A program made the position numbers and the translations under genes. A stretch of DNA of 64,000 nucleotides from Wickerhamiella versatilis (Eukaryota), in NCBI GenBank assembly GCA_030867685.1, contig JAQOWU010000008.1:3658001-3722000 (forward strand). The letters run 5' to 3'. This document shows, piece after piece, positions 35,535 to 40,616 of this stretch. The notes under the pieces are model-generated. The model was not told the DNA's origin, did not search any database, and saw only the letters and a list, made by a program, of their open reading frames with translations. Positions within the stretch are counted from its first letter, which is position 1. Each line of letters starts with the position of its first letter.

Positions 35535-37232
35535 ATGTCAGAGCCGAGAAAAGAGCGAGCTGCTCGACCTCGTCGGCGAGGGGGTGGCCGTCCTCGGGAT
35601 ACTAGGCCACCAAAAGGGTCTGATAATGATATACAGGCTAACATTAATCCGAAAGTTGCGCTAAAGGAGCTATTCCCTGACTGGGGGGATGACGATCTCG
35701 AGACAGTTCTGGCAGATTCACAAGGAGAACTGGACGAGGCGGTCCAGCGTATAACCGATGGCCGTGCCCAACAGTGGGGACGAGTTACCACCCGTAAGCA
35801 AAGAAAAGAAGAGCAGAGTTCTGCTGCGGCACCAGATGTACCTGCGAAAGATCACTCGAAACGAGACCATGACCAGGAACGTCGACAAAAGCCTAAGAAG
35901 AAGGTTGTGGCAAATGGCGCTCCGAAAAATCTTCCGAATACTACGTCCGCTCCGAAGCAAGTACCTCCTTCAGGGCCAGCACCAAAACCGGCACCCACCA
36001 CCAGCGTTCCAAAACCGTCACAGAAGCCATCTGCTGGAGGTAGTATGTCATGGGCAGAGATGCTCTCTCGTCCAAAGGTGCCAGAGCCAGAAGTTGAACA
36101 ATATCCTGCACCAGAAAAAGCTGCCCCCGCTGTAGCTGACGAGCCTATTTACGAACAAAAGCAACCGGAGGTGCAACCTGTACAACCTTCGCAACCCACA
36201 AAACCTGCACAGCCTCCCACGAATCCGAAGGGCCATACTGAGGAGCCAAAGAAGTCTAGCGTTCCCAATGGAGCCGTATCATGGGTGGCAGCACTATCTG
36301 CACAAAAGCAAAATAAGCCTGCAGAGAAAAAGGAGGAAGCAGAGCCAGTTGTAAATGCTGCTAAATCTGCTCCTTCGGAGATCCAGTCTTTGGAAAATGC
36401 ATCAAGTGAGAATGAGGGGACAAAGAACAGGCGCCGCCGTGGTGGGCAGCGTCAGAAAAAGCCTATAGAGCCGGAAAATCAGAACGGAGATATTGAAACT
36501 GAACAAGTTAATATCCAGTTTGGTTCGTTCGGTTTATCAGAAGAAACACCGCACCCTGCTGTTGGTGGACCCGTTGAGATCAAGACACAGCCAAGGATTC
36601 CAGAAGTTCCTGTAGGACCTCGGGGTAGTTCTATTAGAAGGTCTCAGGTCTCAGGTAAGATTCCCACAGCCCCCGCGGTACCACCATCAATTGTCCCTCA
36701 AGTACCCCAAGTACCGCCTGCTGTACCGCCTGCCGTGCCTCAAGTTCCGCTGGCCTCCTTTTCACATCCTACTCCCCATGCTGACCCGGCTACAACTGCC
36801 GAATCAGTACCGCAGGCATCCTATGGGGAGGTCCCATTCGAGGCACCTTCGCCATATGGTTATGGTATGGGATATCCTCCCCGTTATAATTATGGCGAAT
36901 ACGGTGGATACGATCTAGCAGCACAGCAGTTTTATTATCCAGCACAAATCCCTCAGGTGCCGCAAGCACCAGCTGCCGGTGCGAAGTCTGGCTCGAGTAC
37001 CACCTCACCAATGCCGTTTGCTCATCCTGCCCCTTACTTTATGGCCCCATCAGCATACTATTATGGGTATCCCGGTTATGGAAATGGTATGATGCTACCT
37101 GCACAGGCACAATCTCCGGCTCCTGGCCACCCACAACAGCAGCCTATCCCACAGGCACAAGCACAGGCTCCAGGTCATGGCCAGGGACAACCGAACAAAA
37201 ACTCACCATATTTTTGGCAATATGGGCAATAG
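35535..37232 (+). CDS. DEF1: RNA Pol II degradation factor Def1-like (CUE domain plus P/Q/Y-rich low-complexity region)
   Basis: LKELFPDW.DDDL..VL....G.LD.AV.RITDG.A.QW. Confidence 0.8.
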   Translation: MSEPRKERAARPRRRGGGRPRDTRPPKGSDNDIQANINPKVALKELFPDWGDDDLETVLADSQGELDEAVQRITDGRAQQWGRVTTRKQRKEEQSSAAAPDVPAKDHSKRDHDQERRQKPKKKVVANGAPKNLPNTTSAPKQVPPSGPAPKPAPTTSVPKPSQKPSAGGSMSWAEMLSRPKVPEPEVEQYPAPEKAAPAVADEPIYEQKQPEVQPVQPSQPTKPAQPPTNPKGHTEEPKKSSVPNGAVSWVAALSAQKQNKPAEKKEEAEPVVNAAKSAPSEIQSLENASSENEGTKNRRRRGGQRQKKPIEPENQNGDIETEQVNIQFGSFGLSEETPHPAVGGPVEIKTQPRIPEVPVGPRGSSIRRSQVSGKIPTAPAVPPSIVPQVPQVPPAVPPAVPQVPLASFSHPTPHADPATTAESVPQASYGEVPFEAPSPYGYGMGYPPRYNYGEYGGYDLAAQQFYYPAQIPQVPQAPAAGAKSGSSTTSPMPFAHPAPYFMAPSAYYYGYPGYGNGMMLPAQAQSPAPGHPQQQPIPQAQAQAPGHGQGQPNKNSPYFWQYGQ

Positions 37233-37291: not shown

Positions 37292-38605
37292 TCAAGCCTG
37301 AGGATCATGCACAACGCCTACTCTTTCCTTAGCAAGTACATCAACGAAAAGCGGGGACATGGGTGTATCAGGAATACCACGTTCACGCTTCGATTCTTTG
37401 TATGCACGCACGTTGTCCAAGTATTTATCGAAAAGGAAAGCGCTGTCTAGAGGGCCACCCTTAGCCTCTGGATGAAATTGAGTCGAAAAAATCGGCCTCG
37501 ACTCGTGATAAATACCTTCATTACTCTGGTCGTTCAGATTGATGAAATAAGGCTTCCAGTTAGATGGCAACGTGTTTACATCCACTGCATAGCCGTGATT
37601 TTGAGATGTGATGTGACAAAGTCCGCTCTGTAAGTCTAAAGCCGGGATGTTATGAGCACGGTTACCGTACTTCAACTTGACTGTTCGGGCACCCGCCGCT
37701 AGTGCAAGTAGCTGATGGCCAAGACAGATACCAAAAATAGGCCCGTCGTAAGTGTCCATCGTTTCACGCAGATTCTCCACAGTTGACAGGCAGTGAGTAG
37801 GGTCGCCGGGTCCATTAGACAGGAATATGCCGTCAAAATGGTGCGCTATCTTCTGGATGGGATAATCATAGGGGAACACCGTAATAGCAGCCCCTCGTGT
37901 TACAAGAGAGCGGAATATATTTTCCTTACATCCGCAATCAATTACAGCGAGATGTATTCCTTCAGGATTTTGTGAAGGGCTAACATGGAATGGTGCTTTA
38001 GTGCTTACCTTGTGTACCAAGTTGATCGATTCAGGATCGACAAAAGCATCGTCCTCATCGGCATCGTATTCCTCTCCAATAGTCACTCTTGCCAGACTTG
38101 AGCCCCTCTCACGCAAAAATTGTACAATTGAACGCGTGTCCACATCAGTTATTGCTGCAACTCCCTCTCTCTTGCACCAGTCTCCAAGAGACTCAACAGC
38201 AGTCCAGTGCGAATATTCCATCGCAGCGTCACTAACCACGATTCCCTTACATTGAATATCTGGGCTTTCAAAATACTTTAACAAGTTGAAACTATCACGC
38301 GCTTCACCACTCGGTACACCATAATTGCCAATTAGGGGTTGAGTGAACACAAGGATTTGTCCACGATAAGATGGATCTGTCATAGACTCCGGATATCCTA
38401 CCATACCTGTGGTGAATACAGCCTCTCCGCTGATATTTGTGTTGGCACCAAATGATTTACCGTGGAATACAGGACCATCCCTGATTGTGAGGGTAGCACG
38501 GTCTAATCCTGTACTAGTAGACGCAAATCTGCGAAATGCTTGCCGAGATTTCCATAAGGTTGTTGCAAGGTAATCTTGCGAAATTCTGGTGCTAAAGAAT
38601 CTCAT
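37292..38605 (-). CDS. CPA1: Arginine-specific carbamoyl-phosphate synthetase small subunit with presequence and in-frame AAP-like N-terminus
   Basis: [46 protein letters not shown]. Confidence 0.96.
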
Positions 38606-38892
38606 GATAGGAAGGTTATGTTTTGAGCAAAAAATTCAAGCCAGAGCCAATTAGTCAAAGGACAAGTGAAGATAACCCTAGCCTTTATCTCGACAAGGCA
38701 GTCAAGAAAACAATTAATTCACTGGTGATCAGGAAAAAAATTTTGTGGAAACCAATATTTCTTTTTTCTTTCCCGTGTTTCGTCCTGCTTTGCAATCCGC
38801 TGTCGGCATAGGGCATCCGTAATAATAATAATAATAGCTAGTTGAGCTATTGAACCGTTCCGCCAATTAAGAACCGATTATCACTCAAGACT

Positions 38893-38910
38893 TGACTCAT
38901 TATATGACTC
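38893..38910. promoter_or_regulatory. Tandem Gcn4-type sites upstream of CPA1
   Basis: TGACTCA at 38893 and TGACTC at 38905, about 290 bp upstream of an amino-acid biosynthesis gene. Confidence 0.6.
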
Positions 38911-39602
38911 TTCTCAATGGGATACAGCAATGCCGATCAAAGTACTAGTGATTTAAGGCGCTCTAGGACCCACTTCAAAGAGGATGCAAATACAGAATCC
39001 AAATAGAAAAAGACTCGCATTCGGAGAAATTAAGCCTTATAACAAAGGAGAAAATCCTATTCTTGTAGCAGTTTTAGACATTCGCAATTCAAGTGCCATA
39101 TATCTACTACAGGTCTTTATAGTCATACAAAAAATCTTTGGTGTTCTCTTCAAGGCTCAAACTTAATATCATCGATAATCCTCTCTAAACTTGGACAGTT
39201 AGAAAGAGTTTGTAATTTATTAGGCTTCACAACTCGTTAACCAATGCACTAAACAACCTAGAGCTTTTCGAAAGATAACTTTAGTCCAAGGCTAGCTGGT
39301 AAGTATGTTTTCTTAAACAAGACTAAGAACCAAGCGAGAAAGTTTCAAGTTTTAATGTACATGTTGACAGTAGAGTGCTTAATATATAGAAGGCTTCAGT
39401 GTTAGTAGGATCAGTGTAACTATGACATTAAAAAGATCATCGCGGCTAATGTTCAATACGAACACCTTGAATACCGCTGGGGTAAACGATTTATGTTGTC
39501 CTCATCTCCAACTTACCGATTATTGCAAACAAGCAGATTTCTTCGTCTTAGTAAGTTTGTGTGAGTTTGGTTCATACCAAGAGAAAAATTTAAAAAAACC
39601 GT

Positions 39603-40616
39603 ATGAGAGATGTAAAAAATCACCCGCTCAAGGTCTTTGCCCGAGCTAAATCCCAGGGAAAACCCGTACTCGTGAGTGGTCCCATGGTTAGATACTCAAA
39701 GCTCCCATTTCGACAGACCGTTAGAGAATTCAGCCCTGAGGCCCTTGTCTATTCACCTATGATGCTAGCAAGGGAATTTGTTCGAAATAGCAGAGCCCGC
39801 GACTCAGACTTTAGCACTTTGCCAGATGACTCTCCCTTGATCATTCAATTTGGGACAAATAGTGAGATTGACATAAAAAGAGCAGCTAAGTTGGTGGCCC
39901 CTTATTGCGATGGTATTAGCATCAATTGTGGTTGCCCTATAAAGGAACAGACTCGTGAAGGAATTGGTGCAGCACTTATGGCAGACCCTTATAAAGTGGC
40001 GCGACTTGTGAATGCGGTGAAGCAAGAGCTCGGTAGTGATTTTTGCGTCGAGGTTAAAATTCGCATACACAGGGACGTTGAGGAGACTGTCAAATTTGCC
40101 CAGTTAGTGGAAGCTGCTGGTGCAGATTATATATCTGTGCATGGCAGGCTGAAGTCGGACAGGTCGAGTGTTCCTGTATGCCTTGAGGCCATCAAGTCCG
40201 TCAAGCTTGGTGTAACATGTCCTGTTGTTGCTAACGGCGATTACTTCACTCAGCAAGATCTTCGAGATATTGTAAAGGCTACTGGAGTGGACGGAGTCAT
40301 GTCTGCTCGAGGCATTCTGGCTAACCCTGCACTTTTCGCGGGATACAACAAGACACCTTTGCGAGCAATAGAACTCTTTCTTGATTTTGCTACCGCTGAT
40401 GGGCTTCCTTTCAAACTAATTCAGCACCATATCTCTGAAATGACCTCAAATGTGTTGACCAAAGCCGGTCGAAAAGAACTCAATGACTGTAGAAGTTTCC
40501 CTGTGTTACTCAATTGGCTTGATAATAACTTTGATCTGAAACGTCGGAAAGAAACAGGTTTCGCGACTCGAGATGAGTGGGTTCTTCGTCCAGGTTCAAA
40601 ATTGCATCTTCTCTAA
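39603..40616 (+). CDS. DUS4: tRNA dihydrouridine synthase Dus4
   Basis: GPMVRYSKLPFR, SPMMLAREF, INCGCP, VHGR, ANGD, GVMSARG. Confidence 0.92.
   Translation: MRDVKNHPLKVFARAKSQGKPVLVSGPMVRYSKLPFRQTVREFSPEALVYSPMMLAREFVRNSRARDSDFSTLPDDSPLIIQFGTNSEIDIKRAAKLVAPYCDGISINCGCPIKEQTREGIGAALMADPYKVARLVNAVKQELGSDFCVEVKIRIHRDVEETVKFAQLVEAAGADYISVHGRLKSDRSSVPVCLEAIKSVKLGVTCPVVANGDYFTQQDLRDIVKATGVDGVMSARGILANPALFAGYNKTPLRAIELFLDFATADGLPFKLIQHHISEMTSNVLTKAGRKELNDCRSFPVLLNWLDNNFDLKRRKETGFATRDEWVLRPGSKLHLL

Follow-up and report, generated by a model that had tools for sequence, protein, structure and literature searches.

A probable in-frame fusion of an arginine attenuator peptide to the CPA1 coding sequence of Wickerhamiella versatilis

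The arginine attenuator peptide (AAP) is the best-studied metabolite-sensing arrest peptide of eukaryotes, and it is described as the product of an open reading frame upstream of the main one (uORF). Here, we report that in a stretch of 64,000 nucleotides from Wickerhamiella versatilis (contig JAQOWU010000008.1, positions 3,658,001 to 3,722,000; hereafter the window) the gene CPA1 very probably carries an AAP that has been joined, in a natural uORF-to-CDS fusion, to the N-terminus of its coding sequence (CDS). The complete statement, in which the fused peptide has also kept its ability to sense arginine, is one that we hold at slightly less than even.

CPA1 encodes the arginine-specific carbamoyl-phosphate synthase small (glutaminase) subunit and occupies positions 37292..38605 of the minus strand (437 codons and a stop). 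The frame is open from 38605 to 37292 without a stop between the N-terminal peptide and the enzyme domain, so that the peptide runs directly into CPA1, as an earlier note made from the sequence of this DNA had stated. Pfam places CPSase_sm_chain (PF00988) at residues 39-173 (151 bits, 1.7e-44) and GATase (PF00117) at residues 221-396 (174 bits, 4.1e-51), which gives the order carbamoyl-phosphate synthase small chain, then class-I glutamine amidotransferase, and because both domains are present the gene is CPA1/arg-2. The nearest named relative is CPA1 of Starmerella bacillaris, which is 71% identical over the first 120 residues. The span to which the earlier note had drawn attention, 38534-38605, corresponds exactly to codons 1-24. 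The second in-frame methionine is M68 (in TTGMVGYPE), and since CPSase_sm_chain spans residues 39-173, this next possible start lies inside the catalytic domain, again in agreement with that note.

The segment that we consider AAP-derived is encoded by codons 1-23 (38537..38605, minus strand), and its length and the position of its Asp fit natural AAPs of 18-27 amino acids. Using a hidden Markov model (HMM) built from 30 different natural AAPs upstream of fungal CPA1 genes, we scored 125 CPA1 N-termini. The N-terminus of the window protein obtained 13.7 bits (E 1.9e-4 among the 125 N-termini, or about 1.5e-6 per sequence) and that of P0001, a close relative, 14.2 bits; P0061, in whose gene model a canonical AAP is joined to the enzyme, reached 44.6 bits, and the best ordinary CPA1 presequence only 0.3 bits. 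The same model was run on a background set of 23,950 six-frame pieces of 70 amino acids from the window (3,654 pieces) and from 80 fungal CPA1 loci. Here the N-terminus of the window CPA1 scored 13.8 bits, compared with 7.6 bits for the best other piece of the window and 6.5 bits for the best minus-strand piece of the loci, and every other piece above 7.6 bits comes from the CPA1 5' region of a locus, on its coding strand. With 13.8 bits against a background maximum of 7.6 bits, a chance match is not credible, which argues for AAP ancestry. Judged by these scores, the segment is statistically AAP-like, and it is found at the one gene where AAPs occur.

Within this segment, the core (codons 9-19, 38549..38581, minus strand) keeps D11, Y12, L13, L17, W18 and K19, while A14-T15-T16 replace the Ser-Asp-His of other AAPs. 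D11-Y12-L13-x3-L17-W18-K19 fits a pattern common to all 30 unique natural AAPs. Both the exact AAP spacing of D, Y and W that had been claimed for SQDYL-x3-LWK and the change of SDH to ATT can be read directly from the alignment of these 30 peptides. The segment also ends where natural AAPs end, and its codons 1-23 belong to the 5' end of an mRNA for an arginine-specific carbamoyl-phosphate synthase small subunit, whose 5' ends lie 32-46 nt further upstream. Compared with the fungal AAP uORF known from CPA1 in S. cerevisiae and arg-2 in N. crassa (PF08252), it thus has the same gene family, the same place at the mRNA 5' end, a similar length (23 amino acids versus 18-27) and the same Q-D-Y-L...L-W-K letters and spacing. 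In contrast, it has no stop after the peptide and so does not form a separate uORF, it has Ala-Thr-Thr, its start codon has an A at -3, and its score falls below the Pfam threshold. We conclude that the segment is AAP-derived and that it fails three of the catalogued features of the family, namely the separate uORF, Ser-Asp-His and the Pfam score.

How close natural CPA1 genes are to such an arrangement can be seen in the 80 loci, which come from metagenome contigs and are the best 80 of 139 relative-encoding stretches (341 pattern matches). A search with the core pattern found an intact separate AAP uORF in 31 of them, with 30 different peptides; one extra match, in L005, was excluded as no stop follows it. 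In all 31 intact natural AAPs the uORF stop comes 4-5 codons after W[KR]. The spacer between uORF stop and main ATG has a median of 63 nt and measures 12-106 nt in 29 of the 31 loci, the outliers L064, L065 and L079 stemming from crude start-codon assignment. The uORF shares the frame of the main ORF in 11 of the 31 loci, and in six a single in-frame stop alone separates AAP from enzyme (five by count, and L079 by inspection, which was added because its tblastn match starts inside the uORF). In L079, tblastn aligns the window protein from residue 7 co-linearly across uORF, stop and main ORF. The yeast locus L001, 81% identical to the window protein, has MNGFTCQDYLSDHIWKTNQH, a stop, ten sense codons and the ATG, all in frame. 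Since one stop codon is all that stands between six of the 31 natural loci and a fusion, the capture step is mutationally trivial.

A further 29 loci show a half-profile match of 13.3-17.8 bits just upstream of CPA1, over profile positions 10/11-19 (L014-L016, L018, L021-L023, L027, L030, L035, L036, L038-L043, L045, L046, L049, L050, L057, L061, L062, L067, L071 and L076-L078). L023 has the first half of the AAP some 20 codons upstream and in a different frame, and for this reason the uORFs of these 29 loci are apparently split by an intron.

Transcript data support a single reading frame. Two raw-read RNA-seq runs under the same species label were mapped on 38150-39150. They contributed 1,799 and 1,911 reads, of which 1,647 and 1,748 reach at least 99% identity. 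Depth is about 230-330 per mate orientation across the CDS, about 115 at 38592-38625, about 30-46 at 38626-38659 and about 5 beyond 38660, and fragment ends accumulate at 38637, 38644 and 38651. From these ends, the depth profile and a scan for ATGs, we place the 5' untranslated region of the main mRNA at 38606..38651 (minus strand), a leader of about 32-46 nt without AUG. The sense strand holds no ATG from 38606 to 38808, the nearest being at 38809 and 38816, which bears out the earlier statement that none occurs in the ~200 nt upstream. Since the 5' ends lie at 38637-38651 and the leader has no AUG, the AUG at 38605 is the first on the main mRNA. In neither run are there joints, indels or base differences of at least 10% in the mapped kilobase. 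For the main mRNA, an intron, an indel or RNA editing between peptide and enzyme is thereby excluded; the earlier note had named an intron or indel as something that would undo its proposal, and sequencing error is likewise removed as an explanation. With the first AUG at 38605 and no joint or indel, peptide and enzyme are read as one frame.

The start codon itself differs from what is usual for an AAP uORF. Its context, CCTATCATGAG, is good and has an A at -3, which is present in just 2 of 21 natural AAP uORF starts, and the start of the S. cerevisiae CPA1 uORF is described as a weak context in a section of PMC7969011. The leaky-scanning context of AAP uORFs is thus absent here, and on these grounds the AUG at 38605 resembles the start of a main ORF and not that of a leaky uORF.

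How might the fusion have arisen? Most fungi have an AAP uORF before CPA1. We suggest that in an ancestor in the Starmerella clade this uORF lost its stop and its short spacer and joined the CPA1 frame, probably by a small in-frame deletion that would have taken out stop and spacer along with the front part of the older presequence. Just ten residues separate the AAP-like part from the conserved LDRATL, and because these ten alone remain, we infer that such a deletion is the simplest route. The window protein (P0121) belongs to a three-member cluster with P0001, which differs from it at 34 of 437 residues, and P0122, which differs at one. When residues 1-40 were searched within the whole protein against 5.8 billion clusters, three candidates were returned, of which P0001 was the sole valid match. 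A contig from another run (X17), with about 98% DNA identity, carries the change T15A (38563 T>C). In a quick IQ-TREE tree of CPA1 proteins the pair of window protein and P0001 (support 99) stands beside a group (support 97) of S. bacillaris, S. bombicola-type and two further proteins, all with ordinary presequences, and the fusion therefore looks lineage-specific and fairly young. The presequence of S. bacillaris (P0002) has a Trp at a similar position. As the tree puts S. bacillaris with the ordinary-presequence proteins, a fusion specific to the present lineage is favoured over the view that P0002 is a decayed copy. The central proposal of the earlier note, that the uORF had merged with the main ORF, is thus upheld by an AAP-like segment at the AAP gene, by relatives with short-spaced uORFs of which some are one stop away, and by the RNA-seq data.

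Does the fused segment still sense arginine? A review passage that attributes the result to Spevak 2010 lists Asp12, Tyr13, residue 14 and Trp19 as the critical AAP residues, and D11, Y12, L13 and W18 are these four, at the correct spacing. An excerpt of PMC7038982 reports that D12N abolishes stalling and that Asp12 contacts uL4, and a review passage citing Fang 2004 has the AAP acting whatever its position in the peptide; in natural AAPs, stalling occurs at the uORF stop codon, as a part of PMC7969011 describes. Among 119 other CPA1 presequences, an acidic residue within the first 25 amino acids occurs in 12 and a Trp in 10. All three known fused sequences retain D11 and W18. When P0121 is compared with P0001, 1 of the 14 core positions (residues 9-22) has changed, as have 6 of 19 in the N-terminal flanks and 27 of 404 in the mature enzyme (core versus flanks: binomial P 0.037; one-sided Fisher 0.10). 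From the sequence, we find it plausible that arginine-dependent stalling has been retained, although we would lean slightly to the other side if forced to choose.

The mechanism that we envisage follows from the kept AAP spacing together with the reported position independence of AAPs: with D11, Y12, L13 and W18 in place, the nascent chain would most likely slow or arrest its own ribosome near codons 23-26 when arginine is high. The expected pause site, if the peptide works, is 38528..38539 (minus strand), as derived from the distance of 4-5 codons between W[KR] and the end of natural uORFs. At high arginine, peptidyl transfer would slow once about 23-26 residues had been made, and with a leader of 40 nt and a ribosome stalled 70 nt beyond the AUG, following ribosomes would queue and new initiation would be blocked. 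At low arginine, translation would proceed, and the same residues would emerge and guide import. Because no ribosome can reach the enzyme codons of this mRNA without translating the peptide, control would act directly on the elongation of CPA1, and it would replace leaky scanning past a uORF and nonsense-mediated decay. Tentatively, and at somewhat less than even, we propose that the 33-residue segment is used twice, as an arrest peptide in the tunnel and then as a presequence, that it constitutes an elongation checkpoint within the CDS, and that Ser-Asp-His is dispensable for sensing. One may further speculate that the stall is coupled to import or to no-go decay, as the earlier note had suggested.

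The second of these uses is mitochondrial targeting. Codons 24-33 (38507..38536, minus strand) encode the presequence tail, with the R-2/R-3 cleavage-type motif RRF|AST: R25-R26-F27|A28 fits R.[FYL][AS], the motif is at residue 25 in P0001 too, and similar R-F/L-S/A-S-T tails stand just before LDRATL in several relatives. Nearly all relatives have an extension before LDRATL, of 14-71 residues, that is basic and rich in Ser/Thr. Residues 1-33 contain six basic residues and one acidic residue (net charge +5); in the comparison with relatives the presequence counts seven basic residues, where the median is 7, and its maximum hydrophobic moment over 11 residues is 0.65, versus a median of 0.59 in 119 relatives. 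Features of a matrix presequence are therefore present in charge, Ser/Thr content, amphipathicity and Arg at -2/-3, as a count of features and not the output of a trained predictor. To this extent, on features of the sequence, the presequence-like character that had been noticed earlier is supported by the net charge and by an RRF|AST motif common to relatives.

We regard residues 24-33 as what is left of the older mitochondrial presequence. A stretch of ten is too short to form a targeting signal, and an enzyme that is still mitochondrial would therefore need a contribution from the AAP-derived part. This part has 4 basic residues and 1 acidic residue, versus medians of 2 and 2 in natural AAPs, a shift in the direction expected for a presequence. 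It may have been reshaped accordingly, with Arg2, Arg7 and Arg21 gained and the second Asp and the His lost, and it would now supply most of the targeting signal. In P0125 (449 amino acids; in the 90% cluster of Starmerella bombicola CPA1), an open in-frame region with more Met codons (MFKAFARPASLSKH...) lies upstream of the annotated MLRF... start; the S. bombicola-type models of 414 amino acids may start too late, and their real presequence may be longer.

Several observations weigh against a working sensor, and most of them would equally fit a different account, in which the fusion is real and the sensor is dead. The absorbed uORF would then serve as presequence material, arginine control would have been lost or moved elsewhere, and D-Y-L...L-W-K would be a young relic or be kept for import. 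This account is a real contender, though we think it more apt to be wrong than right. In the 30 natural AAPs the Ser of Ser-Asp-His is changed in 2, the Asp in 1 and the His in 1, compared with Ala-Thr-Thr here, and the three fused sequences show only two core changes, both of them in this site (P0001 has T16S, the X17 contig T15A), which suggests relaxed constraint. Natural AAPs reach about 32-52 bits in equal 70-amino-acid pieces, so the window N-terminus has about one third of their score, and residues 1-40 found no match to PF08252 (Leader_CPA1; curated cut-off 18.5 bits) even at E <= 10. Among 5.8 billion clusters, a single three-member cluster holds the fused form, which otherwise occurs in one 98%-identical strain, and given this narrow distribution the event may be recent and the motif not yet eroded. 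No frame of four yeast-type loci (L005, L007, L019 and L037, which extend 1.2-2.5 kb upstream) gives an AAP signal. Some yeasts seem to have dispensed with the arginine attenuator altogether, and its loss is thus tolerated. The gain of three Arg residues and the charge shift toward a presequence point the same way. Residues 1-23 alone have a low hydrophobic moment (0.37), which speaks against the double use of the segment. The argument from core conservation is itself weak: it compares two species at 92% identity, and the one-sided Fisher test gives no better than p = 0.10. Against a dead sensor stand the four review-listed critical residues, which are all intact and correctly spaced, the Asp and the Trp, which are uncommon in presequences and yet are kept, and a core that has changed no faster than the catalytic domain, whereas the flanks have.

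The remaining explanations dispute the fusion itself. One would have an ordinary presequence that happens to hold SQDYLxxxLWK, by chance or convergence and without AAP ancestry. Besides the missing PF08252 match, it can appeal to the S. bacillaris presequence P0002, which shares the first residues M-R/K-F/L-F and the similarly placed Trp and is otherwise like those of its relatives. However, the HMM scores against the 125 N-termini and the 23,950 pieces rule out a chance resemblance in practice, the similarity is located at the 5' end in the sole AAP-bearing gene family, at the usual distance of an AAP from the AUG, and its end coincides with that of natural AAPs, which makes this explanation extremely improbable. 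It is also quite unlikely, if a shade less so, that peptide and enzyme are still made separately, from a minor longer transcript, from a non-AUG start downstream or by rare splicing. Reads are found upstream of 38660 at about 2% of the CDS depth, and in run X23 five reads have, at 38635, a 22-nt extension that matches nothing in the mapped 1 kb and that could reflect either an artefact of the library or a rare 5' end, chimeric or alternative. Yet no AG precedes 38635, no joints are seen at several hundred reads per bin and no indels, no stop separates peptide and domain, the next in-frame AUG is within the catalytic domain, and the ten residues before LDRATL leave no room for a separate presequence.

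Taken as an AAP captured into the CPA1 frame, the gene represents a new form of the known AAP system. Its closest laboratory counterparts are engineered AAP-reporter fusions (Wang, Fang and Sachs 1998; Fang et al. 2004), in which arginine reportedly stalls elongating ribosomes just after the AAP codons. These constructs likewise begin a longer polypeptide with an in-frame AAP, but they are laboratory products with a wild-type AAP, whereas here a natural gene has a diverged AAP that must also serve targeting. If true, the fusion would be a natural in-frame counterpart to laboratory fusions that arrest elongation anywhere in the chain, and a documented route of regulatory evolution by which a uORF is captured into a CDS. 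It would also amount to natural mutagenesis bearing on which AAP residues are needed, and on whether one sequence can combine arrest and import. Should the sensor be dead, the gene would instead be a clear case of a regulatory uORF lost by absorption and not by deletion.

The logic that we propose also resembles that of the MTO1 region of Arabidopsis CGS1, where, according to an excerpt of PMC7038982, the pathway product induces arrest within the N-terminal CDS of the enzyme itself. The sequences are unrelated, the effector of CGS1 is S-adenosylmethionine, and its arrest has been demonstrated, whereas arrest at the window CPA1 is proposed. A superficially similar arrangement is found in P0061, a Pseudogymnoascus sp. 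gene model of 475 amino acids (in a cluster of 29), which has PF08252 at residues 1-22 (48.3 bits) and likewise consists, in the predicted protein, of AAP, presequence and carbamoyl-phosphate synthase domain. There, however, a canonical AAP is joined probably by a predicted intron, whereas in the window the genomic frame is continuous and the RNA-seq reads show no splice. As the AAP of L003, a related locus, ends at a stop, the P0061 model is probably a gene-prediction splice. A natural AAP-CPA1 fusion is not described in the literature searched, which excluded the Hood 2007 uORF survey and Spevak 2010, and none appears in the portions consulted of PMC7038982, PMC3299997, PMC3130931, PMC11550727, PMC5487733, PMC7049704 and PMC7969011. 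We found no literature linking the AAP with Starmerella.

Upstream of the main transcription start, two overlapping small ORFs of 43 and 26 amino acids (the latter at 38729-38809) lie at 38685..38816 (minus strand), at an RNA depth of about 2% of that of the CDS. We considered the ATGs at 38809 and 38816 as starts of a hidden AAP and rejected them, as their frames of 26 and 43 amino acids give no AAP HMM signal, consistent with the remark in the earlier note that they encode no AAP-like peptide. Directly upstream of these ORFs, at 38820-38836 (minus strand), the CPA1 promoter contains a short (TAT/ATT)n microsatellite. A pattern scan of the divergent promoter further found two boxes at 38893..38910 (minus strand), TGAGTCA at -294 and GAGTCA at -305, which from their consensus we take to be Gcn4-type sites and which would fit general amino-acid control. 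In the same divergent promoter, which CPA1 shares with the gene at 39603-40616, the length of a poly-T tract at 39039-39040 differs between assemblies: the X6 contig has 14 additional T, and the X17 contig ends or diverges there.

On its other side, CPA1 has a convergent neighbour at 35535-37232 (plus strand), the stop of which is 59 nt from the CPA1 stop. It encodes a protein of 565 amino acids in which a CUE domain (32.7 bits) covers residues 43-76 and a long tail is rich in Pro and Gln, an architecture reminiscent of yeast Def1.

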